Source: a virus (Duplodnaviria; Heunggongvirae; Uroviricota; Caudoviricetes). From it: DNA of 12,316 bases. The notes beneath the pieces are model-generated. The model did no database searches. It saw only the letters and a program-made list of their open reading frames with translations, and was not told the DNA's origin. Positions within the stretch are counted from its first letter, which is position 1, and each line of letters opens with the position of its first letter. The position numbers and the translations under genes are program-made. This document shows positions 1 to 12,316 of this stretch, in pieces. Location of the stretch: the IMG/VR virus record IMGVR_UViG_2563366829_000021, positions 1 to 12,316 of that record. The stretch is one strand, 5' to 3'.

Positions 1-585
1 AAGCAGAAAAAGCTTATTATGCTTCCATCGGAAACGATGATCTGGCAGCCTGAGTTCACAGATAAAACACTCTCCAGGAAACCCGGGGCGGTTCACGTCG
101 ACGTGCTTACCAATCAGTTCGAGGTTCTTCACCTTGTCAGGCCATTTAATTTTTTTGAGGATTGTCTCTATCGAATCCTCGTTCATGTTCATGATGGTCG
201 ATGACAGATCAAAGCCGCTAAGCGTAGTGCGCCAGATTTTCGGCCACTCGCGGATTGGCTTAAGGCTCCCATCGTCGTTGAGGATGTCGATCACGTCCAT
301 CTGGTCGATCTCCACCAGGCGCATGAGAACGTAATCAGCACTGACGCGCATTCGTTTGTTGCGCTCCTCCATCAACTCGGCAATCCGTTTCTGAATGCGT
401 TCATCGCGCATCATGACACTGGCTTTAACTGCCGCTGTATTTGGGGAGAATCCTGCGTTAATCGCAGCCTGAGTCTGATTTTCAGGCGTTTTGATGTATG
501 ACTGGCAATAAGCCTCCTGCATTGCTGTTAGTGGCTTAAATTGCGTTGATTTGCGTTTATAGGTTTTAGGTTCAGCAGGCATCAT
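1..585 (-). CDS. Phage terminase small subunit (Terminase_2-like), partial: C-terminal end lies beyond the window start
   Basis: Manual minus-strand translation from the ATG at 585..583 runs with no stop to position 1 (MMPAEPKTYKRKSTQFKPLTAMQEAYCQSYIKTPENQTQAAINAGFSPNTAAVKASVMMRDERIQKRIAELMEERNKRMRVSADYVLMRLVEIDQ...). The Q-A-Y-C-Q-x-Y ... TQAAIxAG(F/Y)S ... RIQxRIAELxEER pattern matches terminase small subunit N-terminal HTH domains from memory. Absent from the ORF track because no stop lies in the window. GGTGG SD-like element 5-9 nt upstream. Confidence 0.7.
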   Translation of the reverse strand, partial: MMPAEPKTYKRKSTQFKPLTAMQEAYCQSYIKTPENQTQAAINAGFSPNTAAVKASVMMRDERIQKRIAELMEERNKRMRVSADYVLMRLVEIDQMDVIDILNDDGSLKPIREWPKIWRTTLSGFDLSSTIMNMNEDSIETILKKIKWPDKVKNLELIGKHVDVNRPGFPGECFICELRLPDHRFRWKHNKLFLL

Positions 586-592
586 AACCACC

Positions 593-624
593 GTGGTAAT
601 AGTTACCGTTGTGGTAATAGTACC
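593..624. repeat. Two direct copies of GTGGTAATAGT(T)ACC (593-607 and 611-624) in the leader of the terminase small-subunit gene
   Basis: Read directly from the sequence. Each copy is itself a near-palindrome (GGTAA-TAG-TTACC) and uses the same GGTAA/TTACC half-sites as the operator palindrome, but in inverted order. Confidence 0.45.
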
Positions 625-628
625 ATGC

Positions 629-654
629 AAAATAAAGCCGCCATAGTTGGCGGC
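629..654 (-). terminator. Rho-independent terminator for leftward (minus-strand) transcription, downstream of CDS 660..872
   Basis: Stem GCCGCC (637-642) / GGCGGC (649-654) with a 6-nt loop; on the minus-strand RNA it is followed by UUUAUUUUG. No U-tract in the plus orientation. Confidence 0.55.
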
Positions 655-659
655 AGTAT

Positions 660-872
660 TCAAAGTCCATCAAATTCATCGTAAAAACTCTCGTCAAGAT
701 ACCCTTTCCATTTACCGCGAATGAAAATTACATCCTCGCCGCAAGGGTGCTGACTGTCGATAACTATATCCCTCCTGGCGCAACCATACTTATGCATGAG
801 AAATTTAACCTCTTTCGGAAAATTAGCTGAGTTATCTCTCATATCTTCAAGGTCGTAGCGTATTTTTGGCAT
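660..872 (-). CDS. Hypothetical phage protein (70 aa)
   Basis: ORF-track ORF 660..893. Start placed at the internal ATG 872 (MPKIRYDLEDMRDN...) because a GAAGGTG SD-like sequence lies 5-10 nt upstream and the upstream gene stops at 890. Same strand as the operon. Confidence 0.5.
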   Translation of the reverse strand: MPKIRYDLEDMRDNSANFPKEVKFLMHKYGCARRDIVIDSQHPCGEDVIFIRGKWKGYLDESFYDEFDGL

Positions 873-889
873 AACACCTTCGTGACATG

Positions 890-1231
890 TCACACTATTA
901 ATTTCGTTTCATGCCAGCCTTTGGTCACCCAGCATTGCGAGTCACCATTACACGGGCATGAATTAACTGGAACTCTCTCGCCGCACTTACCGCAACGTTT
1001 TCTGCTGATCGATTTTATACGCCCGCGCACCCGGGCATCATCCTGGCGGATCAGCAGCGCGATGTACTCGGCCATTTCATAGGGATCTCGACCAGGGCGC
1101 CGGGCGGCGCAGTTCCGCTCCAGCATTTCAATTTCCTGAGCATCAAGCACAATCTCCAGCTTACGCACACCAGATGCAGCTTGTCTGGCTCTCTGAGCGG
1201 CTTTGCGCTCTGCTGCTGATTTAGCCATCAA
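890..1231 (-). CDS. Hypothetical small basic protein with C-terminal Cys cluster (CGKCG...CPCNG), possible zinc-binding
   Basis: 113-aa ORF, tandem ATG start at 1231/1228 with AGGT 8 nt upstream; overlaps the stop of the upstream gene (1221-1223). No family recognised. Confidence 0.5.
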   Translation of the reverse strand: MMAKSAAERKAAQRARQAASGVRKLEIVLDAQEIEMLERNCAARRPGRDPYEMAEYIALLIRQDDARVRGRIKSISRKRCGKCGERVPVNSCPCNGDSQCWVTKGWHETKLIV

Positions 1232-1502
1232 TATTTACCTTTATCGCGTATACCTTTACCGGTTTATCGCCGAAGTGGGGATGTGTGATTGTCTTGATTT
1301 CATATCCGTCATACGGGACGTCAATTCTACGACTGGAGTCGTCGCGCTTCGGATATCCCTTTGTGATAATCAGTCGGTCATAATCCCTGAACATAATTCG
1401 CTTATTCCAGTAGTCATTACACAGGCGATACTCTTCCGTTTTCTCTCCGCGAATGATGGCATCGAAGTATTCACCTTTAACGGCTAGTTGCAGGTTAGCC
1501 AC
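1221..1502 (-). CDS. ASCH/PUA-like domain phage protein (93 aa from a GTG start)
   Basis: Motif VKGEYFDAIIRGEKTEEYR resembles the ASCH-domain signature as I recall it. GTG start at 1502..1500 preceded by AGGAGG (1513-1508) with a 5-nt spacer. The longer ORF-track version (start 1631) would overlap the upstream gene by more than 100 nt. Confidence 0.5.
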   Translation of the reverse strand: MANLQLAVKGEYFDAIIRGEKTEEYRLCNDYWNKRIMFRDYDRLIITKGYPKRDDSSRRIDVPYDGYEIKTITHPHFGDKPVKVYAIKVNIDG

Positions 1503-2022
1503 GATTAACCTCCTGCTGCGGTGCTGCTGGCAGTGGCATCCAGTGGGTAATACTACCTGGATATAAACTCTTTGCTGGCCCCCAGTAGCCATCTGTATTA
1601 ACACGCATAACCTCACAGCCATCAAAACCATCAGTTACAAGAACGTATTCATAAGGTTCCGGCATCCTTTCGCTTACCGGAATCCAACCATCCGGAGTTG
1701 CCGGAGAGTTGCCATTTATATCGAAGTTTGGCTCTGCGTCCTGAACCAGGAGGATGTAACCATTCTTGGCAGTATCAAGTTCTAACGCCTCGGTGACGGT
1801 ACCGAAATAGCGATTACCTAAATCAGCATCACAAGTGCTTACATCAATGGAAACTTCCATCCCTTCGATTAATTCTGGCAAGTTGTAAGTTTGGCTTACA
1901 GGCTCTGCTTCCAGTGATGCCAGTGCAATTCGTGCCAGTTCCATTTGTTCGCCACGAGTAAGTCCGTTATCAAGCGGATTTTTAATGAATAATTCGATAC
2001 GTTCTTTGGTTATAGCGCTCAT
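1495..2022 (-). CDS. DUF551-family phage protein (175 aa)
   Basis: C-terminal W-I-P-V-S-E-R-M-P ... H-W-M-P-L-P pattern is typical of DUF551 as I recall it. ATG at 2022 with GGAGAG SD 8 nt upstream, 1 nt after the stop of the Ead-like gene. Confidence 0.6.
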   Translation of the reverse strand: MSAITKERIELFIKNPLDNGLTRGEQMELARIALASLEAEPVSQTYNLPELIEGMEVSIDVSTCDADLGNRYFGTVTEALELDTAKNGYILLVQDAEPNFDINGNSPATPDGWIPVSERMPEPYEYVLVTDGFDGCEVMRVNTDGYWGPAKSLYPGSITHWMPLPAAPQQEVNRG

Positions 2023-2023
2023 A

Positions 2024-2752
2024 TCACTCTCCTTTGATGCGAATGCCAGCGACGCGTGGCACATTAACTTCCACGATGCGCACAGTTGGTTTGTACATCT
2101 CAATCGCTGTCAGCCAGTCAGCGCCAGTCATGCGCTTTTCTGCATCGCCATTAGTCCACTTAACCGGTACACCAATAGCCTTCATCGCGATTTCTATTTC
2201 CCCGGCAATGGCGCTTTTTCCGCAACCAGTAAAACCAGAAACAACGACAAGAACTTCGCCTTTGGCTGGTTTTATTTCCCGCGCTTCCAGTTCTGCTATG
2301 CGCTTCTCTGATGCTTCAAGTAACGCCTGCTTATCGCGTAGCGCTTCTTCCAGTTCAGCAACATGGCACTCACTATCAATAAGGTTGTTCTCTGCGGCTT
2401 CCAGCTCAACACGCAGCTTCCCTACCGTTAGCGCAATATCCTCGTTCTCCTGATCGCGGCTTTTGATGTATTGCAGGTTTCTTTCCCGTTCATCCAGCAG
2501 TGCCAGCACGGTAGCTGGATTGGCTGCGGCGATGAATTCAGCATTGGCCTGCTGCTCCATTTGGAAATCTTCATAGAAACGGCTTTCTGGATGCGCTCCT
2601 TCAATTCTGCAAATGGGAATATATCCAGCAACTTCACGATGAATTAGTGCATCATCACCATCAAATCGGCCATCTCCATATTCGAGCGACCACTCGCCAC
2701 ACGTTGCTTTCTCTGCCGCCTCACGCAGTGCCTGATAGTCAATCTTGCTCAC
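2024..2752 (-). CDS. Ead/Ea22-like family protein (coiled-coil-rich, 242 aa)
   Basis: N-terminus MSKIDYQALREAAEKAT...GEW and a long Glu/Leu/Ala-rich coiled-coil segment resemble Ea22-like proteins of lambdoid prophages. GTG start at 2752 with AGGAGG 6 nt upstream; GTGA overlap with the upstream stop. Confidence 0.6.
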   Translation of the reverse strand: MSKIDYQALREAAEKATCGEWSLEYGDGRFDGDDALIHREVAGYIPICRIEGAHPESRFYEDFQMEQQANAEFIAAANPATVLALLDERERNLQYIKSRDQENEDIALTVGKLRVELEAAENNLIDSECHVAELEEALRDKQALLEASEKRIAELEAREIKPAKGEVLVVVSGFTGCGKSAIAGEIEIAMKAIGVPVKWTNGDAEKRMTGADWLTAIEMYKPTVRIVEVNVPRVAGIRIKGE

Positions 2753-3261
2753 TGGTTGCCTCCTTTGCGAAGCTGGGCGGCGATATCTTCGAGAACGCCA
2801 TCAGAGAATGAGCGGTCAAAATCGCCTTCCGGCGCATTAGCCATAAACTCAGTAGAGGTAAGAATCATCCGGGCAATATCCGCGGCGTTCTTCGCAGTAT
2901 CATCAATAAAACCAGCTTCCCAGGCAGCCAGCATTCTGTTCGCCACAAAGTAAGCGCCCTCCTTGCGTGCTTCAGTCTTCACTTCAGCCAGGAAAGCGTC
3001 GGTGGCTGGGGTTTCCGTGAAGTTGTCCTCCCAACCGTAGTACTCCTGACGACAGAAGTTATTAAATTCCTTCTCCGACTGTTTAAGCCCCGCATTCTCC
3101 GCCGCCAGCGCATTAGCACGCACCAGTTGCACTTCCAGTTGCGTTGCCAAATCGCTGATCAGCTTTGCCACACTGCGCATATCAACGGCACCACATTCTG
3201 CTTTCAGTTCCGAAGCCATCTCATGCCCGGCGGAAACTAACCCTTTGATATTACTTTCCAT
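2749..3261 (-). CDS. Hypothetical phage protein (170 aa)
   Basis: ORF with ATG at 3261 and AGGG SD 5 nt upstream; stop overlaps the start of the next gene. No family recognised. Confidence 0.55.
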   Translation of the reverse strand: MESNIKGLVSAGHEMASELKAECGAVDMRSVAKLISDLATQLEVQLVRANALAAENAGLKQSEKEFNNFCRQEYYGWEDNFTETPATDAFLAEVKTEARKEGAYFVANRMLAAWEAGFIDDTAKNAADIARMILTSTEFMANAPEGDFDRSFSDGVLEDIAAQLRKGGNQ

Positions 3262-3322
3262 CTTTACCCTCGCTTATCCACATAACTTATTGATTACATT
3301 GATAACTAAAAAGATCGTCGAT

Positions 3323-3667
3323 TTAGAACTCTTCGATGTTCCAGCCACCACCTGCTTTCTTTGGCTTAACCGTTACCCCGATGATTCGGAACGGATACTG
3401 ATCTGCGGCGACTTTGGTTTTCACCCTGGCGTCGTCGGTCCAGAAACCTTTCACTTCGTGCAGTTCCATCTCGCCGGTGGCGAGCATCACAGCGAAATCT
3501 GGCGTATAAAACGTGTTATCAGCTAACCGCAGCTTGATACCCTCGAACCGATACCAGGCGATTTCCCCTGCACGTTTACGCTGCTCAAGGTGCTGGCAAT
3601 ACGCAGATTCTGTTTTGTTCATCTGGCCTGTTTTGAGTCGACCAAGAGCCTGTATCTGTTTTCTCAT
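3323..3667 (-). CDS. DUF1064-like phage protein, possibly PD-(D/E)XK-fold nuclease
   Basis: 114-aa ORF; motif YTPDF...ELHEVKG...DDARVK is consistent with a D...E-x-K nuclease-like core and my recollection of DUF1064. ATG at 3667 sits directly downstream of a promoter-like element. Confidence 0.55.
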   Translation of the reverse strand: MRKQIQALGRLKTGQMNKTESAYCQHLEQRKRAGEIAWYRFEGIKLRLADNTFYTPDFAVMLATGEMELHEVKGFWTDDARVKTKVAADQYPFRIIGVTVKPKKAGGGWNIEEF

Positions 3668-3669
3668 GA

Positions 3670-3748
3670 TTTACCCCTGAGGTAATTAAAAACCACATAA
3701 GACACTAAATCAATAGATTTTAGAATATTTTATTACCCAGTAGGTAAT
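3670..3748 (-). promoter_or_regulatory. Internal promoter with two operator palindromes: ATTACC-CAGTA-GGTAAT (3732-3748) and TTTACC-CCTGA-GGTAAT (3670-3686) flanking a -35 TTGATT (plus 3708-3713) / 17 bp / -10 TTTAAT (plus 3685-3690), reading toward 3667
   Basis: Read from the minus strand: ATTACCTACTGGGTAAT-(18 nt)-TTGATT-(17 nt)-TTTAAT overlapping ATTACCTCAGGGGTAAA, then ATG. Same geometry as the PL-like promoter at 6768-6846. Confidence 0.5.
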
Positions 3749-3758
3749 CATCGAGACG

Positions 3759-3781
3759 TAAAAAAATGCGCTATCGCGCTG
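3759..3781 (-). terminator. Weak terminator-like element downstream of the P-like gene
   Basis: Short GC palindrome GCGC-GATA-GCGC on the minus-strand RNA followed by seven U. The stem is only 4-5 bp, so low confidence. Confidence 0.3.
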
Positions 3782-3784
3782 GTA

Positions 3785-4567
3785 TTACTTGATAAATCCT
3801 GCCGCCTTTCCCCGCCTGTATTCCTCCATCAGCCACTGCGCCGGTGTTATTCCCCCAAGGGTGGCGGCGTTAGGCATGCACCCGAAACTTCGCCCTGGTG
3901 GATGGTAAACGTCTCTCCCTGTGTCCGGAGGTGTACTCATGGGTTCTGGCTTTGCCTGTATGCTGATCACCGGATCGGGTATCTGCTGTCCGGAAGCCAC
4001 CTTTTTCGCCCAATCATCGAGCAGCCTGCGCGCGTGTTTCTCAACCTCAATCTCGCTAAGCTGGCGCTGATACATTGCACGGCGGGTATCACATACGACC
4101 CAGTACATAACCGGATGTCGCCACGGGAATCTTTCGGGACCACCAGGATATAAACTTTTTTCCTTGCTGTACCGGTGAAACTCCGCCATCACATCGTCAA
4201 TGGTGACGCCAAGAACCATCTTGCTGTCTTTGCACCACTTGATGAATTGCCCAGGCGACGGCCAGAACGGAGATTCACTGGCGCGGGCGTGGCGCATACC
4301 AGCGTTAACCTGTTCCATTGTTGTGATCCCATTCTCCAGAAACGCAAGCATCCATTGTTTTCGAAATTCGTTTAGCTTTCCTTGCTCGCTGATAGCAGCG
4401 ATGCTGCCTGGAAATGCAGCCTGTAACTGGACAAACATTTCGTTGAAAATTCTTGCAACCTGCTCCTTCTTTGCCCTTTCATCGTCAGCAGAAGCAACCG
4501 CCGTCGAGTGGTCATGCCCACCACGAAAGCGATCGTACTCATTAAGAAGTTCTGGAGTTGATTTCAT
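3785..4567 (-). CDS. Replication protein P-like (lambda P family, DnaB helicase loader)
   Basis: WMLAFLENGITTMEQVNAGMRHARASESPFWPSPGQFIKWC aligns almost residue-for-residue with the lambda P segment WVLAFRENGITTMEQVNAGMRVARRQNRPFLPSPGQFVAWC as I recall it. Start chosen at ATG 4567 (MKSTPELLNEYD, compare lambda MKNIAAQMVNFD) with GAGGTG SD upstream; overlaps the 3' end of the O-like gene. Confidence 0.8.
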   Translation of the reverse strand: MKSTPELLNEYDRFRGGHDHSTAVASADDERAKKEQVARIFNEMFVQLQAAFPGSIAAISEQGKLNEFRKQWMLAFLENGITTMEQVNAGMRHARASESPFWPSPGQFIKWCKDSKMVLGVTIDDVMAEFHRYSKEKSLYPGGPERFPWRHPVMYWVVCDTRRAMYQRQLSEIEVEKHARRLLDDWAKKVASGQQIPDPVISIQAKPEPMSTPPDTGRDVYHPPGRSFGCMPNAATLGGITPAQWLMEEYRRGKAAGFIK

Positions 4568-5375
4568 CCCACACCTCATCTATCCAGTCAGTGTTATGCC
4601 AGTCAAGGCTCTTTCTGACTTCACCTGATTTCTGTCTACAGAACTGGATGCGCCTTGCCAGCTTCTGCTCCCACTGTGCCTGATGGTATGCCTTACCCTC
4701 AGCCATCCAGTAAATTCTGAACTCTGCAAGTTCCTGTGCCGTTGGCAGACTGTCCAGGTAGATTCCCTGCAATGAGCTTTTCCGAAGAAAGTCATCTGAT
4801 GGCTGCCATTGTTCATGCATGACAAATTTACCTAATTGCCCTGGCCCACCAGGAGGAACAAAGTTATTCATCACGGCGTTGTTTGCGACGGGGTCATGAG
4901 GCACAGAATCCCCGGTTTTTGTCCTGCTCTCCCTCTCTTGGTTAAATGACTGGTTATATGACTGGTTCTGGATCCCGTTTTTGGGATCATTCAACATCCC
5001 GTTTTTGGGATCATTCAACATCCCGTTTTTGGGTATATTCCCGTTTTCGGTAACATTACCGTTTTCGGGTTCATTGCCCCCCTCCCGGTTGCCTTTAATG
5101 TTCCCGTTTTTGGTTATATTAAGAGAGAAAACCCGCACTCTTTTTGTCGCTCCCTTTCTCTCTCCGGTATCTGAAATAAGCCCCATTTTCATGAGCGATA
5201 TAAGCCCGGCCTGCACGGTTTTTTTATTCAGGCAAGTGTCTTTAACGAGGCGTTCTATGCTGGGGTAGCAGAGGTTATATTCATCGGCTCTGTCAGCCAT
5301 CGAGAGCAGTATGAGCTTTAATGATGAGCTACCTGGATCTGTCTCCCAGGCCCAATCTGTTGCATGTCTGCTCAT
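4542..5375 (-). CDS. Replication initiator, lambda-O-like: N-terminal winged-HTH DNA-binding domain, Asn/Gly-rich repeat linker, C-terminal domain
   Basis: 277-aa ORF directly upstream of the P-like gene. N-terminal LKLILLSMADRADEYNLCYPSIERLVKDTCLNKKTVQAGLISLMKMGLIS looks like a replication-initiator HTH. The central low-complexity linker is encoded by the tandem DNA repeats at 4973-5120. GGAG SD upstream of ATG 5375. Confidence 0.7.
   Translation of the reverse strand: MSRHATDWAWETDPGSSSLKLILLSMADRADEYNLCYPSIERLVKDTCLNKKTVQAGLISLMKMGLISDTGERKGATKRVRVFSLNITKNGNIKGNREGGNEPENGNVTENGNIPKNGMLNDPKNGMLNDPKNGIQNQSYNQSFNQERESRTKTGDSVPHDPVANNAVMNNFVPPGGPGQLGKFVMHEQWQPSDDFLRKSSLQGIYLDSLPTAQELAEFRIYWMAEGKAYHQAQWEQKLARRIQFCRQKSGEVRKSLDWHNTDWIDEVWDEINSRTS
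4973..5120. repeat. Iteron-like tandem repeat array inside the O-like gene (candidate origin of replication)
   Basis: Two exact 24-bp copies TCCCGTTTTTGGGATCATTCAACA (4973-4996, 4997-5020), then degenerate 18-bp units TCCCGTTTTTGGGTATAT, TCCCGTTTTCGGTAACAT, TACCGTTTTCGGGTTCAT and a further TTCCCGTTTTTGGTTATATT at 5101-5120. Each unit has a CCCG-T4/5-GGG dyad core. Confidence 0.6.
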
Positions 5376-5390
5376 GATTAATCTCCGCTA

Positions 5391-5591
5391 TCAGCTTGAG
5401 TGTTGTGGGGAGGAATTAATCATGATCTGCTTAATCTCTGCCCTGATGCGACGGTTTGATTCCATGGTGCACTCAGCACAGTGTCCGTTGTAAACCCAGC
5501 GTTCACTGTCATGTCCATGCTTACATGGTTTTCCGGTGTAGTAGCGTTTAAGTCCGCGCTTTGCGGCATCAATACGTGTAATGATTTCCAT
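5391..5591 (-). CDS. Small Cys/His-rich protein (C-K-H-G-H ... C-A-E-C), possible zinc-ribbon regulator at the cII-equivalent position
   Basis: ORF-track ORF 5391..5654; start uncertain (ATG at 5591 with AGGG 8 nt upstream preferred; 5627 and 5654 are alternatives that would run into the terminator region). No homolog recognised. Confidence 0.4.
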   Translation of the reverse strand: MEIITRIDAAKRGLKRYYTGKPCKHGHDSERWVYNGHCAECTMESNRRIRAEIKQIMINSSPQHSS

Positions 5592-5700
5592 GGTAAGCCC
5601 TGTTATTAGTATTGGGATTACGGTCATTTTGTGCTGACACAAAAAAAAGATCAACCAGATTTGGTTTTTTGTTACCTTTTAGGTGCGAATAGATATGAAA

Positions 5701-5720
5701 AGACCGCCGGATGGCGGTCT
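5701..5720 (-). terminator. Hairpin terminator immediately downstream of the Cro-like gene (tR1-like position)
   Basis: Perfect 8-bp stem AGACCGCC / GGCGGTCT with a 4-nt loop; minus-strand RNA continues UUUCAUAUCUAUU (interrupted U-tract). Confidence 0.5.
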
Positions 5721-5741
5721 ACAGAGGGTTGTGGCTGGATA

Positions 5742-5972
5742 TCATGAGTAGAAGAAGTATGCCAGTTCTGCTTTTGAGCGCAGCCATTGTCTTGTTTTAC
5801 AGGCTTTAAAAAGCCCATTCATCAATACCTTACCTGGCATTTTGCGCTTACCTGTTAAGTGAGTCTGGATATAGTGACTCGTCGTTCCGGCTTCCTGTGC
5901 GAAGGCTTCACGCTCATCCGGAGTAAGTGCAAGCCAGTGCTTTTTGAAATCGAAATGTCCGTTATCGCTCAT
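5742..5972 (-). CDS. Cro-like small DNA-binding regulator (76 aa)
   Basis: Divergent from the repressor across an operator-rich intergenic region; sequence LTPDEREAFAQEAGTTSHYIQTHLTGKRKMPGKVL looks like a short HTH protein. Position and orientation match cro. Confidence 0.55.
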   Translation of the reverse strand: MSDNGHFDFKKHWLALTPDEREAFAQEAGTTSHYIQTHLTGKRKMPGKVLMNGLFKACKTRQWLRSKAELAYFFYS

Positions 5973-6126
5973 AGCTATTGCCTGATATTTATTTCAGATA
6001 ATAAATATTCACCCATAAGGTAACAAAAATCAAGGATAGTTACCTATGGGGTGCATTTACCTGTTGGGTAATATTGCTTTAAATTGAATCATCTACTGAT
6101 TCATATATGAGGCGATTTTCCAGAAA
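5973..6126. promoter_or_regulatory. OR-like divergent promoter/operator region between the Cro-like and repressor genes
   Basis: Strong palindrome TTTACC-TGTTG-GGTAAT at 6056-6072; two degenerate mirror-image copies TCACC-CATAA-GGTAAC (6009-6024) and TTACC-TATGG-GGTGC (6040-6054) flanking a -35-like TTGATT (minus, plus coords 6028-6033). Candidate leftward -10 TATTAT (plus 5998-6003). Individual promoter hexamers are tentative. Confidence 0.6.
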
Positions 6127-6711
6127 ATGAAAAGTATCCAGGACGTCCGCAGGCAAAATCTCAACGACTTGATCGACCGTGAATTCAATGGTGTTCAGAC
6201 GCGGATGGCAGAAAAACTTGGAACTCAGGCAAATCTGGTAAACCGCTGGGCTCTTGGCAAGAAGGTTATCGGCGACCAGGTTGCGCGAAAAATTGAAGCT
6301 GCCGCCAATAAACCCCGTAACTGGCTTGATATCGATCGCTCGCTTTCTCAGGAAGGTTTTCAGCCTGTCGGCCCAAGCGACATTGGTCAGCTGGCGGCTC
6401 ACAACCTGGAACGCTGGATGAGCGAAAGCCGCGACCTTTCAACGCAGGGAAAACTTCACCGCGCATCCGGCGTCGCCCAGGTGACAATCAGTCGCCTGTT
6501 AAACAATGAGGTCAGCGTTTCCATTTCCACCCTGGAGAATGTTGCATCCGCATTCGGGCGTCACGGATATGAACTACTGATTCACCCGCACGACCCTGCG
6601 ACTATCAACTATGACCGCTCACGCTACGCATTGTTACCCGAAACCGAGAAAGCAAAGATCGAAAGTTACATTGAATTTGTCATCAACCAGAACGAAAAAA
6701 GCAAACAATAA
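6127..6711 (+). CDS. Prophage repressor (CI-equivalent) with two tandem XRE-type HTH domains and no recognisable S24 peptidase domain
   Basis: 194 aa. HTH-like segment 1 around residues 10-70 (NLNDLIDREFNGVQTRMAEKLGTQANLVNRWALGKKVIGDQVARKIEAAANKPRNWL); HTH-like segment 2 around residues 95-150 (LSTQGKLHRASGVAQVTISRLLNNEVSVSISTLENVASAFG). The C-terminus shows no LexA-type Ala-Gly/Ser/Lys pattern. Followed by a strong terminator. Confidence 0.7.
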   Translation: MKSIQDVRRQNLNDLIDREFNGVQTRMAEKLGTQANLVNRWALGKKVIGDQVARKIEAAANKPRNWLDIDRSLSQEGFQPVGPSDIGQLAAHNLERWMSESRDLSTQGKLHRASGVAQVTISRLLNNEVSVSISTLENVASAFGRHGYELLIHPHDPATINYDRSRYALLPETEKAKIESYIEFVINQNEKSKQ

Positions 6712-6731
6712 AACTATAGTTTTCAGTAAGT

Positions 6732-6757
6732 AAGCCGCCTCATGGCGGCTTTTTTAT
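6732..6757 (+). terminator. Rho-independent terminator after the repressor gene
   Basis: Stem AAGCCGCC (6732-6739) / GGCGGCTT (6744-6751) with loop TCAT, followed by TTTTTATT. No U-tract in the opposite orientation. Confidence 0.7.
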
Positions 6758-6767
6758 TGCCAGATAG

Positions 6768-6846
6768 ATTACCTTACGGGTAATTTTTTTAACTCATATC
6801 TATTGACACCAAACCAAATAAGCATAATTATTACCCCAACGGTAAC
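6768..6846 (+). promoter_or_regulatory. PL-like early promoter with two operator palindromes: ATTACC-TTACG-GGTAAT (6768-6784) and ATTACC-CCAAC-GGTAAC (6830-6846); -35 TTGACA (6803-6808), 17-bp spacer, -10 AATTAT (6826-6831)
   Basis: Consensus -35 hexamer; upstream operator centred about 30 bp upstream of the -35; downstream operator overlaps the last 2 nt of the -10 and the predicted start site. Confidence 0.6.
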
Positions 6847-6864
6847 AGACCGAGGTAACAAGTT

Positions 6865-7017
6865 ATGCAGTGGAAAATCATCAACGGTTGGTACTGCGTT
6901 ACTGCATGCGGATTCATGAGCTGGAAGTTCCGCACCTTACAGGAAGGCATTAAGTGGGCTTTCGTCAGCAAAGAAGCTCGCGATGTAGCCAACGATAACG
7001 AGATATGGGAGGGCTGA
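6865..7017 (+). CDS. Small hypothetical protein (50 aa), first ORF of the rightward early operon
   Basis: Not in the ORF track (under 60 aa). ATG 6865 with GAGG 9 nt upstream; translation MQWKIINGWYCVTACGFMSWKFRTLQEGIKWAFVSKEARDVANDNEIWEG; stop 2 nt before the next ATG. Not Arg-rich, so not obviously N-like. Confidence 0.4.
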   Translation: MQWKIINGWYCVTACGFMSWKFRTLQEGIKWAFVSKEARDVANDNEIWEG

Positions 7018-7019
7018 TA

Positions 7020-7319
7020 ATGAACGTTAATCAGCAGAAAAATCTTCAAAAAATCATGCTGGCATTCGACAAGGACTACCGCCTGTCAGAACAGCTATAT
7101 GACCGACAAGTTGAACTGATTGAGAGCATCCGACTTCATCAACTGTCCTCAACTTTCGACGTTGTAACAGGCAAAGGCGTTCGTCAGGAAGTGCTGGAGG
7201 CTGCTAAAGACAGCCCTGAGTTCGAAGAACTGATGGATGCCTACCGGCGCGAGGCAATGGCAATTATAGCGCGCTGGGATCTGGCGGATCAGCTTGATGG
7301 ACAGAGGGACGCGGCATGA
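7020..7319 (+). CDS. Hypothetical early protein (99 aa)
   Basis: Internal ATG 7020 preceded by GGGAGGG; ATGA stop/start overlap with the exonuclease gene. No family recognised. Confidence 0.55.
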   Translation: MNVNQQKNLQKIMLAFDKDYRLSEQLYDRQVELIESIRLHQLSSTFDVVTGKGVRQEVLEAAKDSPEFEELMDAYRREAMAIIARWDLADQLDGQRDAA

Positions 7320-8137
7320 AACCGGGAATTTATTTCGACATCAGCAACGAAGACTACCACGCCGGTGACGGCGTGAGTAAGTCGCAACTGGACATGGTTG
7401 CCAAGAATCCGGCGCTTCTTAAATGGGTTCAGGCAGCACCAGAAGACGAAGAGAAAAAGTCTGCACTGGATATGGGAACCGCATTGCACTGTCTGCTTCT
7501 GGAGCCTGGAGAATTCGACAAACGCTTCATTGTTTCACCGAAGTTCGATCGTCGGACGAAACAAGGTAAAGCTGACGAAGAAGCATTTCTTCGTGATGTA
7601 GCGGATATGGGGATTACGGTACTTGATGCCGAGCAGTGGCGGAAACTGGAGCTGATGCGTGATAGCGCAATGGCTCACCCGGCGGCACGCTGGATGCTGG
7701 AAGCACCTGGTTACTGCGAAGCATCAATGTACTGGAACGATGAAGAGACGGGTGAGTTGTGCCGAATTCGTCCAGACAAATGGCTGAACGAGCACAACGT
7801 GATCGTCGACGTGAAAAAGGTTGCAGATATGGACCGTTTTGCACGTCACATCGAGGAATTCCGCTACCACGTGCAGGACGCAATGTACCGCGAAGGCGCA
7901 ATGAGGGTTACTGGTCAGCCGCATGGTTTTTTCTTTCTTGCCGTGAGCGAAAGCATTGATTGTGGTCGGTATCCGGTACGCGTGTTCGGGCTGGATGCGC
8001 CGGATGTCGATGCCGGGCACGCTCTGTTCCGCCGGGATCTGAATACCTATCACGAATGCCGCATCAGCGATGAATGGGGCGGCGTGGAAATTATTAAACG
8101 CCCTGAGTGGGCACGCAAACAGGATATGTACGTATGA
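7316..8137 (+). CDS. PD-(D/E)XK-family exonuclease (RecB/Cas4-like core), recombination partner of RecT
   Basis: 273 aa. Motifs RIRPD ... IVDVKKV (D/E-x-K) and YHVQDAMY (QxxxY) are typical of RecB-family nuclease cores. Sits immediately upstream of, and translationally coupled (ATGA) to, a RecT/Bet gene. Confidence 0.7.
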   Translation: MKPGIYFDISNEDYHAGDGVSKSQLDMVAKNPALLKWVQAAPEDEEKKSALDMGTALHCLLLEPGEFDKRFIVSPKFDRRTKQGKADEEAFLRDVADMGITVLDAEQWRKLELMRDSAMAHPAARWMLEAPGYCEASMYWNDEETGELCRIRPDKWLNEHNVIVDVKKVADMDRFARHIEEFRYHVQDAMYREGAMRVTGQPHGFFFLAVSESIDCGRYPVRVFGLDAPDVDAGHALFRRDLNTYHECRISDEWGGVEIIKRPEWARKQDMYV

Positions 8138-9051
8138 GCAACGAAATTGCAATCACCAATGATGTGTTGGCTATTCGGGGAATCGATGAAGTTACATGGA
8201 GCGCTCTGAAAAACAGTATTTACCCTGGGGCAAAAGATGAATCGGTAATGATGGCAGTCGATTACTGCCGGGCGCGTCAACTCGATCCTCTTCTTAAGCC
8301 GGTACACCTGGTACCAATGAGTGTTAAAGACTCGAAGAGTGGAAAGAATGAATGGCGCGACGTGGTCATGCCTGGCATTGGACTTTATCGCATTCAGGCC
8401 TACCGTTCCGGCGATTACGCAGGCGCTAATGAACCTGAGTTCGGTCCAGATGTAACACAAACGCTTTCAGGCGTGGAGGTTACCTTCCCTCAGTGGTGTA
8501 AGTACACCGTCAGCAAGCGAATGGCAAGCGGGGAAATCGTAGAGTTTAGCGCCAAAGAATACTGGATTGAGAACTATGCAACTGGGGGGCGTGACACATC
8601 GGCACCAAATGCCATGTGGAAAAAGCGCCCTTATGCGCAGTTGGCAAAATGCGCAGAGGCACAGGCATTACGTAAAGCATGGCCGGAGATTGGTCAACAA
8701 GCCACAGCTGAGGAAATGGAAGGTAAATATATCGACTCACCTGACATTATTGAACGTGACGTAACTCCAAGAAGTCAGGCAAAGCACGGCACAGCATCCA
8801 GCATGAACAGTCTGATCAACGCTAAACCAGTGAAAAAGCATGATGAGCAAACGCGTAAAGCGGATAGCCGTGATCCAGAAGAAATGCTGATGGCCTTTAC
8901 CAGCGCAGCGATGAATTACAGCACTGTCTCCGAACTGGATAAGGCTTACAAATACATTGCACAAAAACTTTCAGATGATGACGAACTGCTGGCAAAAGCC
9001 ACCGACGTTTACAGCGTTCGTCGGGAAGAATTAAACGAAACATCTATGTAA
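8134..9051 (+). CDS. RecT/Bet-family single-strand annealing protein
   Basis: 305 aa from ATG 8134. Layout and segments (ALKNSIYPGAKDESVMMAVDYCRARQLDPLLKPVHLVP; WKKRPYAQLAKCAEAQALRKAWPE) parallel lambda Bet / RecT as I recall them. Confidence 0.8.
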   Translation: MSNEIAITNDVLAIRGIDEVTWSALKNSIYPGAKDESVMMAVDYCRARQLDPLLKPVHLVPMSVKDSKSGKNEWRDVVMPGIGLYRIQAYRSGDYAGANEPEFGPDVTQTLSGVEVTFPQWCKYTVSKRMASGEIVEFSAKEYWIENYATGGRDTSAPNAMWKKRPYAQLAKCAEAQALRKAWPEIGQQATAEEMEGKYIDSPDIIERDVTPRSQAKHGTASSMNSLINAKPVKKHDEQTRKADSRDPEEMLMAFTSAAMNYSTVSELDKAYKYIAQKLSDDDELLAKATDVYSVRREELNETSM

Positions 9052-9100
9052 CCACCACCGCGGCGCCACGCGCGCCGCACTGCAACCAAGAGAGGTATTT

Positions 9101-9349
9101 ATGAAAGGTGCATTAGGTAAGAAGGAACTCCTGGCGGTGGTGCCACTGTCATGGAGCACTATCGACCGTATGGAGCGCGCAGGGGAATTTCCTAAACGCT
9201 GGTATATCACCGATAAACGCTGCGCATGGAACCGTGACGAAGTTGAGCGTTGGCTTGATGAACGTCAGGCAGCAAGCCCGGCAGAGTTCCAGGGTAAAAA
9301 GCCTCCTGTTCAGCAACGTGTATATCGTCCTGTGAGCAACGCTGCATGA
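9101..9349 (+). CDS. AlpA-family phage transcriptional regulator / excisionase (Xis-like)
   Basis: 82 aa; LSWSTIDRMERAGEFPKRWYITDKRCAWNRDEVERWLDER matches the AlpA-type HTH pattern (STI-R...GEFPK...W...EVE.WL.ER). GAGG SD 5 nt upstream of the ATG. Confidence 0.75.
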   Translation: MKGALGKKELLAVVPLSWSTIDRMERAGEFPKRWYITDKRCAWNRDEVERWLDERQAASPAEFQGKKPPVQQRVYRPVSNAA

Positions 9350-9374
9350 GTGCGCTGCTAAGGCACTGGAGCAA

Positions 9375-9458
9375 ATGGTCAGGATGGTACTTATTCCTGG
9401 CCTCTGTTTCAGCATGGCTTTATCTGCTGGCATTAATTTTCAGAGAGGGTTGGATTAA
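9375..9458 (+). CDS. Possible 27-aa hydrophobic micro-peptide (MVRMVLIPGLCFSMALSAGINFQRGLD)
   Basis: Short ORF not in the track; GGAG 3-4 nt upstream of the ATG (short spacing); ends exactly where the next ORF starts. Speculative. Confidence 0.2.
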   Translation: MVRMVLIPGLCFSMALSAGINFQRGLD

Positions 9459-9758
9459 GTGAGAAAGTTAAGCCGACTTGAAAAATATCACATGAATAAG
9501 GTTTCAATGCGCAGTCCGTCAAAGATTGTCGCCGTTACTCCTGCGGCGATAGAGATCGAAAAACGCGCGATTGAAAGAGAGAAAAAAGGGCAATTCCGCA
9601 TTGCCGCTCACCTTTGGCTTCAGTGTATGGATGTTGCTTCTGGTGATGTTGAACGTGCAAGGATCGCGGTTCGCAGGGACCAATGTATCACAAAAGGTAA
9701 CGGCCTTCGCCGTGGCGACTATAGCGGCATAGGATGTTGTGGGGTGGTTTATGACTAA
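9459..9758 (+). CDS. Hypothetical protein (99 aa, GTG start)
   Basis: ORF co-oriented with the operon; GAGGG about 10 nt upstream of GTG 9459; 3' end overlaps the methyltransferase start by 8 nt. No family recognised. Confidence 0.4.
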   Translation: MRKLSRLEKYHMNKVSMRSPSKIVAVTPAAIEIEKRAIEREKKGQFRIAAHLWLQCMDVASGDVERARIAVRRDQCITKGNGLRRGDYSGIGCCGVVYD

Positions 9759-10401
9759 GAAATACACACTAATCTATGCAGATCCACCCTGGGTATACCG
9801 GGACAAAGCCGCAGATGGTAATCGCGGTGCCGGTTTTAAATATCCAGTTATGAGTGTGCTGGATATCTGCCGCCTTCCTGTGTGGGATTTTACCGCTGAA
9901 AACTGTCTGTTGGCCATGTGGTGGGTGCCAACACAACCACTCGAAGCACTAAAAGTTGTTGAAGCCTGGGTATTTCGTCTGATGACGATGAAGGGCTTCA
10001 CGTGGATAAAATGTGGTAGTCGACAACCAGATAAACTGGTTATGGGTATGGGACACATGACTCGCGCCAATAGTGAAGATTGCCTGTTTGCGGTAAAGGG
10101 AAAACTACCTACGCGCATTAATGCAGGGATCGTTCAGTCATTTACCGCACCGCGGCTTGAGCACTCAAGAAAACCAGATATCGTTCGTGAAAAACTTGTG
10201 CAATTGTTAGGCGATGTTTCTCGCATTGAACTGTTCGCCCGCCAGACGTCTCATGGCTTCGATGTTTGGGGTAATCAGTGCGAAGACCCGGCAGTGCAAC
10301 TACACCCTGGATACGCGTTGGATATTGGCGGATTAACAAATGCATTCAGCAATGCTCAGGTGTCACCAATAGACAACCAGGGGCGGGAGCGTGCAGCATG
10401 A
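9751..10401 (+). CDS. MT-A70-family DNA N6-adenine methyltransferase (DPPW motif), orphan
   Basis: N-terminal [14 protein letters not shown] contains the catalytic DPPW tetrad. Start at ATG 9751 (GTG 9739 is an in-frame alternative). Stop overlaps the phosphatase start (ATGA). No restriction endonuclease partner seen in the window. Confidence 0.8.
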
Positions 10402-11057
10402 ACCTATATCAACGCATCAATGGCGCTGACTGGTGCAATATCTTCGTCGTCGGCGATCTGCATGGGTGCTACACGCTGCTGATGAACGAACTCGACAAAG
10501 TTTCATTCGACCCGGCGCGCGATTTACTTATTTCCGTTGGTGACCTTGTTGACCGCGGCGCTGAAAACGTCGAATGCCTGGATTTGATTACTATGCCGTG
10601 GTTCCGAGCTGTTCGTGGCAACCATGAGCAGATGATGCTGGATGCACTGGTCAACGGCGGAAGTTTCGGACATTGGATGTCAAACGGCGGTGGATGGTGG
10701 CACCAACTTGATTCTGAGCAGGATGTGCAACTCAAATACCTTCTGCCAAAGATTACCAACCTCCCGATGATTATCGAACTGGTTACCGGCAATAAGAAGG
10801 TCGTCATCTGTCACGCAGACTACCCGCACAACGAATACGCATTCGATAAGCCAGTACCAGAAGAAATGGTGATATGGAATCGTGAGCGGGTTAGCGACGC
10901 GCAGGACGGTATTGTCTCGGAGATAACCGGTGCCGATTTGTTCATCTTCGGTCATACGCCAGCACATCACCCACTGGTGTATGCAAACCAGATGTACATC
11001 GACACCGGCGCAGTGTTCTGCGGAAATCTGACGCTTACCAAAGTCCAGGAAGGATAG
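10398..11057 (+). CDS. Ser/Thr protein phosphatase, lambda-PPase-like (calcineurin-like metallophosphoesterase)
   Basis: 219 aa from ATG 10398 with PPP-family motifs GDLHG, GDLVDRG, GNHE and a C-terminal GH. The ORF-track version carries an upstream extension that I reject. Confidence 0.85.
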
Positions 11058-11059
11058 AA

Positions 11060-12316
11060 TTATTTATTACTGTCTTCCATCCACCTCTCAAACTTCGACG
11101 GGGAGAACGGAATCAGATCCGTATGCTCCCCGTCAATCCATGAATCAATCATATCGGCCCACTGCTGCAACATGTAGGCGCGCTGTCTGGCGTATTCCGC
11201 TTTGTTATATACGGCGCGCACACCTTTCTGCTCATGTGCCAGAGCCTTTTCAATCCAGTCTGAAGGATAACCAGCCTCATGCAACAACGTACTGGCTGTA
11301 CGGCGCATATCGTGTACGGTGAAGCCCTGAATATGCTCACCATCTTCATTTATTATTTTCACCGTTCTGTCGATCAGAGAGTTCAGCGCGGCATTAGATA
11401 ATGGCTTCCGGAAATTGTAACGACCAGGAACCAGATATTCACTTCCACCAGCGCACATCTGCAACCCAACCAATATATCCTGTGCCTGTTTAGGCAGGTA
11501 AATAACGTGCGCCCGGCTTCCCTTCATGCGGTCTGAAGGAATTGTCCATGTCCATTTTTTAAAATCTATTTCATCCCACGTTGCATTGGTGAATTCGCCT
11601 TTACGAACCATAGTGATAAGCACCAGCTTTAAAGCCATTTTCATAGTGCCCATAGCACCAATGGCATCCAGCGTGCGGAAGAACAGGCCAATTTCTTCTG
11701 GTGTCAGTGTTCGCTCTCGTGGTTTAAATATGGCGATAGACGAAGGTTTAATGTCAGCCGCAGGATTAAACAAACCATGACCACGGTCATTGGCGTGACG
11801 GTATACGCTGCTGATGCTCTCCCTGGCCTGTACTGCTGTTGCCCGACCACCGCGTTCGACAATCCGGTCACACAAATCACGAACCATCGATGTGGTAATT
11901 TCAGCCATCATTTTGTTACCAAGAACAGGAAGTATGTCACGGTCGATCACCGCCTGCTTCATTGCGCGGGTACTGTCAGCCAGGATGACGTGTTTCATAT
12001 AACTGTCGGTATGTACCGCAAACGTCTCGGCACCACGAATCTTTTTGATACCGTCACGTTTAGCCGCAGCCGGTGACTGGCCTGCTTTAAGCAGCTTCTT
12101 TGCAGCAATCAGTTCTTCTCGCGCTTCTGCCAGGCTGATACCGTCACGCCCATACTGCCCGATTACCAGTGTTTCGCGGCGACCGTTGATACGGTAGTCA
12201 TAGCGAAACGAGACCGTGCCTGACGTAAGCACAGCTACATACAGCCCGTCACGATCGGAGACCTTGTACAGTTTGTCCTGCGGCTTGAGGTTTTTTAATT
12301 TTGTATCGGTAAGCAC
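11060..12316 (-). CDS. Tyrosine recombinase / phage integrase, P4-like family with N-terminal DUF4102 arm-binding domain; first codon (GTG) sits at the window edge
   Basis: 418 aa. N-terminal LTDTKLKNLKPQDKLYKVSDRDGLYVAVLTSG is typical of P4-like integrases; C-terminal catalytic region includes HDMRRT and LAHEQKGVRAVY (candidate catalytic Tyr). Convergent with the phosphatase gene with a 2-nt gap. Confidence 0.9.
   Translation of the reverse strand: MLTDTKLKNLKPQDKLYKVSDRDGLYVAVLTSGTVSFRYDYRINGRRETLVIGQYGRDGISLAEAREELIAAKKLLKAGQSPAAAKRDGIKKIRGAETFAVHTDSYMKHVILADSTRAMKQAVIDRDILPVLGNKMMAEITTSMVRDLCDRIVERGGRATAVQARESISSVYRHANDRGHGLFNPAADIKPSSIAIFKPRERTLTPEEIGLFFRTLDAIGAMGTMKMALKLVLITMVRKGEFTNATWDEIDFKKWTWTIPSDRMKGSRAHVIYLPKQAQDILVGLQMCAGGSEYLVPGRYNFRKPLSNAALNSLIDRTVKIINEDGEHIQGFTVHDMRRTASTLLHEAGYPSDWIEKALAHEQKGVRAVYNKAEYARQRAYMLQQWADMIDSWIDGEHTDLIPFSPSKFERWMEDSNK

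Follow-up and report, generated by a model that had tools for sequence, protein, structure and literature searches.

The locus at positions 6127..6711 (+ strand) of the window, i.e., the whole 12,316-nucleotide stretch of DNA analyzed here, raises the question of how an immunity repressor that carries two helix-turn-helix (HTH)-like regions and no LexA-like autocleavage domain recognizes its operators, and how it is removed from them upon induction. An earlier note on this sequence had proposed that a single chain could read both halves of one operator with its two HTH heads, and that induction would need another mechanism, such as an antirepressor or a protease adaptor.

Identity of the repressor and organization of its operators

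The window comprises the early region and the integrase gene of a temperate podophage of the phiV10/epsilon15 type (genus Uetakevirus). Positions 91–12316 are 100% identical to a prophage located beside guaA in E. coli MS 196-1, positions 1–96 are the end of an IS, and positions 5300–7400 share 98% identity with phiV10. The gene at 6127..6711, rep, is an ORF of 194 aa with an ATG start and a TAA stop, and its product, Rep, is assigned to the SPC32H-Rep family. Rep is 100% identical to the repressor of phage HEMP4 and 99.5% identical to each of the repressors of phiV10 (p40) and vB_EcoP_ZX5 (ORF21). In a sequence search, residues 1–190 match PDB 5d50_A, named 'Repressor', with an E value of 3.5e-42, and residues 89–190 match 5d4z_A, which is fragment 92–198 of SPC32H Rep, with an E value of 3.6e-20. 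PDB 5D50 is a Rep–Ant complex and 5D4Z a Rep fragment, both from the Salmonella temperate phage SPC32H. The SPC32H Rep/Ant system, to which these structures belong, is reported in Kim & Ryu (2013, J Virol) and Kim et al. (2016, PNAS). The same two entries are the top matches when Foldseek is run with the AlphaFold2 (AF2) model of Rep, and they are followed by ordinary XRE-type HTH proteins. The global identity between Rep and SPC32H Rep is 43.8%. The phiV10 record credits the orthologue of Rep with 'two helix-turn-helix motifs (PF01381)' and notes its similarity to the epsilon15 repressor. Neither Rep nor Ant has a curated family in NCBIfam, the sole matches (RstR, HigA, and TreR) being weak and below the cut-off.

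Experimental data are available for the ZX5 protein: overexpression of ORF21 resulted in no free phage and decreased the transcripts of endolysin by 99.99% and those of holin by 99.97% (PMC9782041). By its sequence relationships, Rep is an SPC32H-family immunity repressor of a phiV10/epsilon15-type prophage. It is also already known: repressor function has been annotated and tested in near-identical proteins, and the mechanism of an orthologue from a phage of the same genus has been worked out.

The rep gene is divergent from a cro-like gene (5742..5972, − strand), an ORF matching phrog_35, 'transcriptional repressor', with an E value of 5.6e-13. A search of the whole window for TTACC-N5-GGTAA with up to one mismatch yielded 8 sites against 0.15 expected, as did 0 of 200 shuffles. 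The full 17-bp operators, ATTACC-N5-GGTAAT, are true palindromes with half-site centers 10–11 bp apart. Three sites, to which no strand is assigned, lie between rep and the cro-like gene and constitute an OR region: site 1, TCACCCATAAGGTAA (6009..6023), found by the motif search within a PR-like promoter; site 2, TTACCTATGGGGTGC (6040..6054), which has an equivalent position in SPC32H, Klebsiella BUCT711, and Tyrion; and site 3, TTACCTGTTGGGTAA (6057..6071), a perfect site found by the motif search and the comparison of four phages. With centers at 6016, 6047, and 6064, these sites are spaced by 31 and 17 bp. Just downstream of rep, there are two further sites without strand. OL site 1, TTACCTTACGGGTAA (6769..6783), is located 5′ of the −35 hexamer of a PL-like promoter, and OL site 2, TTACCCCAACGGTAA (6831..6845), adjoins its −10 hexamer, so that the pair, with centers 62 bp apart, brackets the promoter.

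Both promoters are predicted from their match to the consensus. The PR-like promoter (TTGTTA-17-TATTAT; 5998..6026, − strand) would drive transcription of the cro-like gene as well as the replication genes, and the PL-like promoter (TTGACA-17-AATTAT; 6803..6831, + strand) that of an early-left operon that extends from 6865 onward and includes two small ORFs, an exonuclease, RecT, and so on. An intrinsic terminator follows rep (6732..6751, + strand), and the phiV10 record also has a terminator at this position. The three-site OR (30–31 + 17 bp) and the OL pair (62–63 bp) are kept in the E. coli phage, SPC32H, Klebsiella BUCT711, and Enterobacter Tyrion. An operator with a spacing of 6 between TACC and GGTA was also considered and rejected, as none of its seven one-mismatch matches falls in OR or OL; the right spacing is 5.

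The designation of this protein as an immunity repressor in the earlier note is borne out by the divergent cro-like gene across three operators, by the full-length homology to SPC32H Rep, and by the ZX5 overexpression data. The 17-bp operator with half-site centers about 11 bp apart, described in the same note, likewise holds, both in the number of sites and in the distance between the centers.

Domain organization of Rep and recognition of the operator

Rep can be divided into three domains and a linker. The N-terminal domain (residues 1–71; 6127..6339, + strand) is an HTH domain that, from homology, would read the operator; in the AF2 model, its helices have high pLDDT values, with helix 2 at residues 24–31 and the recognition helix (NLVNRW) at 35–43. 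It is followed by a variable, acidic, and disordered linker (residues 72–86; 6340..6384, + strand), with pLDDT values below 50 at residues 73–83, a mean majority-residue frequency of 0.43, and a net charge of approximately −3. The middle domain (residues 87–152; 6385..6582, + strand) has an XRE/HTH_3 fold and, from its Pfam and 5d4z matches, is the counterpart of the SPC32H Rep domain termed MDD. The C-terminal domain (residues 153–194; 6583..6708, + strand) is aligned at 50% identity with the SPC32H domain termed CAD ('TetDloop'). The corresponding identities are 53.5% for the N-terminal domain and 33% for the middle domain, with 26% over its helix-turn-helix. The AF2 model, a single chain predicted with 22 homologues as input (mean pLDDT 78.8), comprises two helical bundles (residues 4–59 and 83–151) separated by the disordered stretch 73–83, and then two helices (164–168 and 172–193).

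A Pfam search with the whole protein detected HTH_3 (PF01381) with an E value of 1.2e-9 and 38.5 bits against a gathering threshold of 23, in two matched stretches of which the best covers residues 106–147, as well as a YdaS/DUF739-type HTH at residues 20–61. When searched alone, the middle piece (residues 84–156) exceeds the gathering thresholds of both HTH_3 (27 bits against 23) and HTH_26 (26.4 against 22), and the N-terminal piece (residues 1–75) gives weak matches below the cut-off, with 20.6 bits for YdaS and 16.1 bits for HTH_3. The N-terminal HTH is thus recognized mainly through its fold and its YdaS/DUF739-type similarity. The last 41 residues, scanned as a separate piece, have no Pfam match. 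These matches and the two helical bundles of the model agree with the two XRE-type HTH-like regions seen earlier in this protein.

An internal duplication was considered as the source of the two HTH domains and rejected: BLASTP of the N-terminal against the middle domain gives no alignment at E ≤ 100, and each domain has separate relatives. The earlier statement that a LexA-like autocleavage domain is missing is correct; Rep has none, and a Pfam search with a cut-off as loose as E ≤ 10 does not detect Peptidase_S24 (PF00717). A cryptic RecA-dependent cleavage site was also set aside, as there is no S24 fold.

Several residues of the N-terminal domain (Q24, R26, E29, N36, R40, W41, and K46) are invariant among 22 homologues, and its net charge is +5 (family mean +4.3), whereas that of the middle domain is approximately 0. 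All four phages with the TTACC half-site (the E. coli phage, SPC32H, BUCT711, and Tyrion) have the same recognition helix, NLVNRW. SPC32H Rep is described in two papers that cite the primary work (PMC9638917 and PMC9986798), and PMC9986798 distinguishes an N-terminal DNA-binding domain (DBD), a dimerization domain (MDD), and a CAD responsible for tetramerization and Ant binding. According to these papers, the tetramer interface is hydrophobic and involves F187 and F190. These two residues align with Y181 and F184 of Rep, and F184 is invariant in the 22 homologues. By analogy, the middle domain of Rep is probably a dimerization domain despite its XRE/HTH_3 fold, and the C-terminal residues, about 40 in number, would tetramerize and dock the antirepressor. 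A single HTH with a dimerization domain, the arrangement that the earlier note set against its own proposal, may therefore describe Rep in function, but it does not describe it in fold.

Homologues of Rep were searched for among 1.84 billion representative proteins, and those that match one part of Rep are informative about both domains. Four proteins matching only residues 1–80 (P0131, P0158, P0164, and P0177) share ~46% identity over ~80 aa with the N-terminal domain and have Peptidase_S24 C-termini (55–76 bits). At the P0177 locus, three operators are present between the divergent genes (1634, ~1666, and 1684; spacings of 32 and 18 bp), and two more are found downstream (3047 and 3072). At the P0131 locus, two operators were found against none expected by chance. 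Since the same operators occur with S24-type relatives, the N-terminal domain is associated with this operator system even where the middle domain is absent.

Proteins matching only residues ~85–190 are 93–173 aa long, and their sole HTH is of the middle-domain type. One of them occupies a cI position, divergent from a small gene, beside CII-like and primase genes and with an integrase at the other end; another is in a cI position with lambda-P/DUF1376 genes on one side and ERF and SSB on the other. The intergenic regions of these single-HTH relatives contain repeats unrelated to TTACC, a comparison that is uninformative on the reading of TTACC. As judged from these sequences, Rep looks like a cI-type DNA head fused onto a complete small repressor of the 'HTH + oligomerization' kind.

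How, then, is the operator read? A single polypeptide with two different HTH heads, one for each half of a single 17-bp operator, is suggested by the XRE-type HTH fold of both domains and by half-site centers about one helical turn apart. However, TTACC and GGTAA are inverted copies of one sequence, and a palindromic operator of this kind needs one and the same head twice. No similarity is detectable between the N-terminal and middle domains of Rep, and their recognition helices differ (NLVNRW and VTISRL). Moreover, the middle helix changes among phages with identical half-sites (Q118 to P, V119 to A, and S122 to N), whereas the N-terminal helix is conserved, and the S24-type relatives have the same operators in the absence of a middle domain. 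In addition, PMC9638917 and PMC9986798 state that SPC32H Rep binds DNA as a tetramer, that the dimer binds weakly, and that the pair of N-terminal domains on each palindrome is proposed to come from different dimers. Reading of both half-sites by one chain, as put forward previously, is not supported by this evidence, and we consider it extremely improbable. By analogy with SPC32H, the N-terminal domain is the likely operator reader, acting as pairs of N-terminal domains.

The middle domain might instead dimerize and also keep a role in DNA binding, either to a second motif or non-specifically, so that the tetramer would have two classes of DNA-contacting unit. Its HTH_3 and HTH_26 scores above the Pfam gathering thresholds, the invariance of Q107, Q118, and R123 in close homologues, and the occurrence of the middle and C-terminal module as a stand-alone protein of 93–173 aa, whose only HTH it provides at the cI position of prophage-like loci, are in favor of this role. 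Because Rep resembles a cI-type head fused to a complete small HTH repressor, some residual DNA binding by the middle domain would be conceivable. Yet, this domain is called a dimerization domain in PMC9986798, which cites the structure paper, and it lacks the positive charge of the N-terminal domain. Q107 and Q118 are replaced by E and P in SPC32H Rep, and inspection by eye of the OR regions of the four phages reveals no second common motif. A DNA-binding role for the middle domain is accordingly judged improbable, less so than the reading by two heads. For annotation, the preferred assignment of operator reading to the N-terminal domain would mean that the strongest 'HTH' of Rep in profile searches (residues 106–147) is not the operator reader.

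The probable antirepressor and the proposed release of Rep

No antirepressor is identifiable in the window, in line with the earlier note: tblastn with Ant gives nothing significant, and PHROGs searches of nine other window ORFs detect no anti-repressor family. A search of the window for LexA boxes gives only one-mismatch matches, at chance level (3 against 3.7 expected). A candidate is present elsewhere in the phage. The phiV10 protein p24 (85 aa), annotated as a 'hypothetical protein', matches 5d50_E, 'Anti-repressor protein', with an E value of 2.9e-46. In the MS 196-1 prophage (locus L003), the corresponding gene, ant, is located at 1563–1820, and its product shares 98% identity with Ant of phiV10 and 88% with that of SPC32H. 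A perfect LexA box, TACTGTATAAACATACAGT (1524–1542), is found 20 nt upstream of the ant start codon and is the sole perfect LexA box within the 49-kb locus.

The ant gene of this prophage is ~23 kb from rep and oriented divergently to the tailspike gene; phiV10, the MS 196-1 prophage, and SPC32H, the three genomes considered, all have ant beside the tailspike/tail-fiber gene. The control region of ant is conserved between this prophage and SPC32H, in which the gene carries the annotation ant. According to Kim & Ryu (2013), LexA is said to repress ant, and a point mutation in the LexA box is said to make SPC32N induce constitutively. The presence of ant in the source genome of the window itself is assumed from the MS 196-1 prophage, given the 100% identity over 91–12316. 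The search of the prophage beyond the window that the earlier note had called for thus located an Ant homologue in the matching prophage, and together with the LexA box it agrees with the predicted induction via an antirepressor.

Induction might instead proceed mainly through a Bro-N protein encoded just downstream of ant, with the SPC32H-type Ant of little role. The Bro-N gene is next after ant in phiV10 and the MS 196-1 prophage, and the ZX5 study ascribes antirepressor activity to its Bro-N protein, and not to the Ant homologue: overexpression of ORF4, the Bro-N protein of ZX5, decreased the prophage counts from 10^9 to 10^6 and the repressor transcripts by 75% (PMC9782041). The Bro-N proteins of ZX5 and phiV10 are only 39% identical, however, which indicates that Bro-N is a variable accessory gene, and there is no annotated Bro-N gene at that position in SPC32H. 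Ant, in contrast, is 88–98% conserved, matches the crystallized partner of Rep, and has a conserved LexA box. A main role for Bro-N is thus very improbable, about as much so as the reading of one operator by two heads, although the protein may be an additional player. The antirepressor of phiV10-type E. coli prophages would then really be the unannotated 85-aa 'hypothetical protein' encoded behind a LexA box beside the tailspike/tail-fiber gene.

Taken together, it is highly probable that Rep belongs to an antirepressor-controlled switch of the SPC32H type, in which the N-terminal domain reads the operator, the middle domain dimerizes, the C-terminus tetramerizes and docks Ant, and a LexA-controlled Ant releases the repressor. 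In such a switch, the HTH domains of residues 1–71 would read the ATTACC-N5-GGTAAT palindromes in pairs, the middle domain of residues 87–152 would dimerize Rep, and the last ~40 residues would provide both the tetramer contacts and the docking site of the antirepressor. The Rep tetramer would thereby present two DNA-reading pairs and occupy the three OR and two OL sites that overlap the PR-like and PL-like promoters. Upon DNA damage, LexA would become inactive, and the 85-aa Ant, encoded far outside the window beside the tailspike gene and behind a LexA box, would be made, bind Rep, and take it off the DNA. For SPC32H, PMC9638917 and PMC9986798 report that an Ant tetramer, bound to two Rep dimers, breaks up the tetramer of Rep. 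Binding as a tetramer, non-cleavage, and Ant-driven release are inferred for Rep from this homologue, which is only 44% identical overall and 33% identical in the middle domain.

The operator palindrome also recurs between genes throughout the phage genome, and its positions are syntenic in three phages. Of the 17 operator sites in locus L003, for which 0.9 would be expected in total, 16 fall within the MS 196-1 prophage, and in SPC32H, where 94% of the genome is coding, all 11 perfect operator sites are intergenic. Some of the dispersed sites precede terS, the head operon, and int, and others lie between the replication genes and the nin-like genes or among accessory genes; operator-like sites are also present on both sides of ant. 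From the positions of these sites, Rep could be a prophage-wide silencer, more than a two-promoter switch, a possibility that we put forward tentatively and regard as rather doubtful. If true, a Rep tetramer with two reading pairs could bridge dispersed sites, repress or obstruct a large number of transcription units, and gate the gene of its own antirepressor. The literature searched, which for epsilon15 and SPC32H was secondary, contains no relevant report on dispersed operators in phiV10, epsilon15, or SPC32H.

Comparison with known systems

The closest known system is that of SPC32H, which belongs to the same genus. The two phages share the position of the rep gene, the three-part layout and full-length homology of the repressor, the aromatic interface residues, the TTACC-N5-GGTAA operators, and the OR spacing, as well as an Ant that is 88% identical, encoded at the same place beside the tailspike/tail-fiber gene, with the same LexA box. 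They differ in the central 5 bp of the operators, which are G+C-richer in the window phage, and in the number of OL sites (three in SPC32H and two in the window). The known picture of the SPC32H-type switch is unchanged by the present findings. For the orthologues of the window Rep, the experimental data are those of the ZX5 overexpression work, whereas the data on mechanism come from SPC32H. The records of phiV10 (p40), ZX5 (ORF21), and epsilon15 (gp38) and the ZX5 paper make no link to the SPC32H Rep–Ant system, and the Ant homologue is annotated there as a 'hypothetical protein'.

The logic of Rep and Ant is the same as that of the repressors GfoR, GtgR, and GfhR of Gifsy-1/-2/-3 with the LexA-controlled GfoA, GftA, and GfhA, and as that of CI and Tum of coliphage 186. 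SPC32H Ant is reportedly distinct in structure from the Gifsy/186-type antirepressors, according to Kim & Ryu. In the Gifsy and 186 systems, a small antirepressor, encoded outside the immunity region and repressed by LexA, inactivates a repressor that is not cleavable (PMC3121763; PMC7380047), and for the Gifsy pairs, an interaction as dimers has been proposed (PMC3121763). Rco of the Bacillus plasmid pLS20, relieved by the anti-repressor protein Rap, resembles Rep in having an N-terminal HTH and a C-terminal TetDloop (p53-like) tetramer domain, and the Rco authors identify the C-terminal domain of SPC32H Rep as a TetDloop (PMC9986798). [quoted passage not shown]

Repressors of the lambda CI/LexA type (HTH and Peptidase_S24) are related to Rep through its N-terminal domain, which is shared by P0131, P0158, P0164, and P0177. 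The two S24-type loci that were read (P0131 and P0177) have the same operator motif as the rep locus, and that of P0177 has the same three-site OR layout. Rep has the middle and C-terminal module in place of the S24 autocleavage domain, so that the SOS signal would arrive via Ant and not through RecA-stimulated self-cleavage. These proteins thus appear to represent a natural module swap, in which one head and its operator system are joined either to a LexA-like self-cleavage module or to an antirepressor-sensing oligomerization module, and which would illustrate how temperate phages rewire the SOS input while the immunity specificity is unchanged.

Operator-like palindromes across the prophage

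A motif search of the window, the Escherichia coli MS 196-1 locus (L003), phage phiV10 (L002), and the whole genome of Salmonella phage SPC32H (L005) revealed that palindromes of the form TTACC-N5-GGTAA, which resemble the operators of the immunity repressor Rep, are scattered genome-wide and are nearly always intergenic. In the window, motif matches are located at 585–599, 603–617, 3671–3685, 3733–3747, and 5672–5686. The MS 196-1 locus contains 17 such sites, against 0.9 expected; 16 of them fall within the prophage (span 1472–30783), and the flanking chromosome holds just one, with a mismatch. For SPC32H, whose genome is 94% coding, all 11 perfect sites are intergenic. The positions are syntenic among SPC32H, phiV10, and the MS 196-1 prophage: 5′ of int, of the head operon, and of the small terminase gene terS; in the interval that separates the replication genes from the nin-like ones; and amid the accessory genes.

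The annotation of terS bears on the placement of two of these sites. In phiV10-type records, the start of this gene (window 583–663, minus strand) is probably annotated about 26 codons too far upstream: the SPC32H version is 27 residues shorter, and in-frame ATG codons (Met-Met-Pro-Ala-Glu-Pro-Lys) lie directly downstream of the two operator-like sites. With such a downstream start, both sites would belong to the 5′ untranslated region rather than to the coding sequence.

Insertion element, recombination genes, and inverted repeat

The first ~96 bases of the window (1–96) show a 99% match to the end of an IS3-family element (L003 10503–10598). As this IS end directly adjoins the minus-strand coding sequence of terS, this gene appears to be interrupted in the source genome of the window. 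Alignment of the window with the MS 196-1 prophage starts from base 91, where the IS end meets terS, and the MS 196-1 copy carries the same kind of IS at another place, within the structural genes. If terS is interrupted, DNA packaging by the prophage would probably be impossible, which would affect any induction test.

At 7316–9051, an exonuclease of the YqaJ/PD-(D/E)XK type and a RecT/Bet recombinase are encoded by separate, overlapping ORFs, as in MS 196-1, whereas the phiV10 record shows one fused RecE-RecT protein across the corresponding region.

Between the cro-like gene and site 1 of the operator region OR, an inverted repeat rich in A+T, ATATTTATT-N6-AATAAATAT (5988–6011), covers the PR-like promoter's −10 region (hexamer at 5998–6003). 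Among the OR regions compared, the repeat is kept in Enterobacter phage Tyrion but is absent from those of SPC32H and the Klebsiella phage. A further regulator, for instance the Cro-like protein, might bind there.

The antirepressor gene as a possible target of Rep

The antirepressor gene ant (L003 1563–1820; L002 20543–20800; L005 19676–19936) is also accompanied by operator-like motif matches. One site (L003 1472–1486; L002 20877–20891; L005 20013–20027) lies ~38 bp upstream of the ant LexA box and is kept in all three phages; a second is found immediately 3′ of ant in the MS 196-1 prophage (L003 1852–1866) and phiV10 (L002 20497–20511). These flanking sites suggest that Rep may also regulate the gene of its own antirepressor, e.g., via a ~380-bp loop.

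Ant is much better conserved than its target Rep: the proteins of the E. coli prophage and of SPC32H share 88% identity for Ant and 44% for Rep. Thus, the Ant of one phage might trigger induction of related prophages residing in one cell with it; such cross-induction has been described for the Gifsy phages. Ant is labeled merely “hypothetical protein” in the phiV10 record and in RefSeq E. coli genomes, its family, PHROG 450, is entered as of unknown function, and NCBIfam contains no model for it.

Comparison with cleavable repressors and other multi-site systems

The metagenomic relatives P0177 and P0131 are cleavable-type repressors that combine the N-terminal domain with Peptidase_S24, whereas the Rep phages carry the Ant-responsive dimerization and tetramerization module (MDD-CAD) instead. 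The operator motif is the same in both groups (P0177, L015 1634–1698 and 3047–3086; P0131, L014 204–269), and the three-site OR layout of the P0177 locus matches that of the Rep phages. This constitutes a natural exchange of the module that senses induction, S24 autocleavage in one case and Ant-responsive MDD-CAD in the other, with one DNA-reading head and operator system common to both. As for the dispersed Rep operator-like sites, they are similar to the “stoperators” of mycobacteriophages; alternatively, their scatter resembles multi-site looping by a tetramer.
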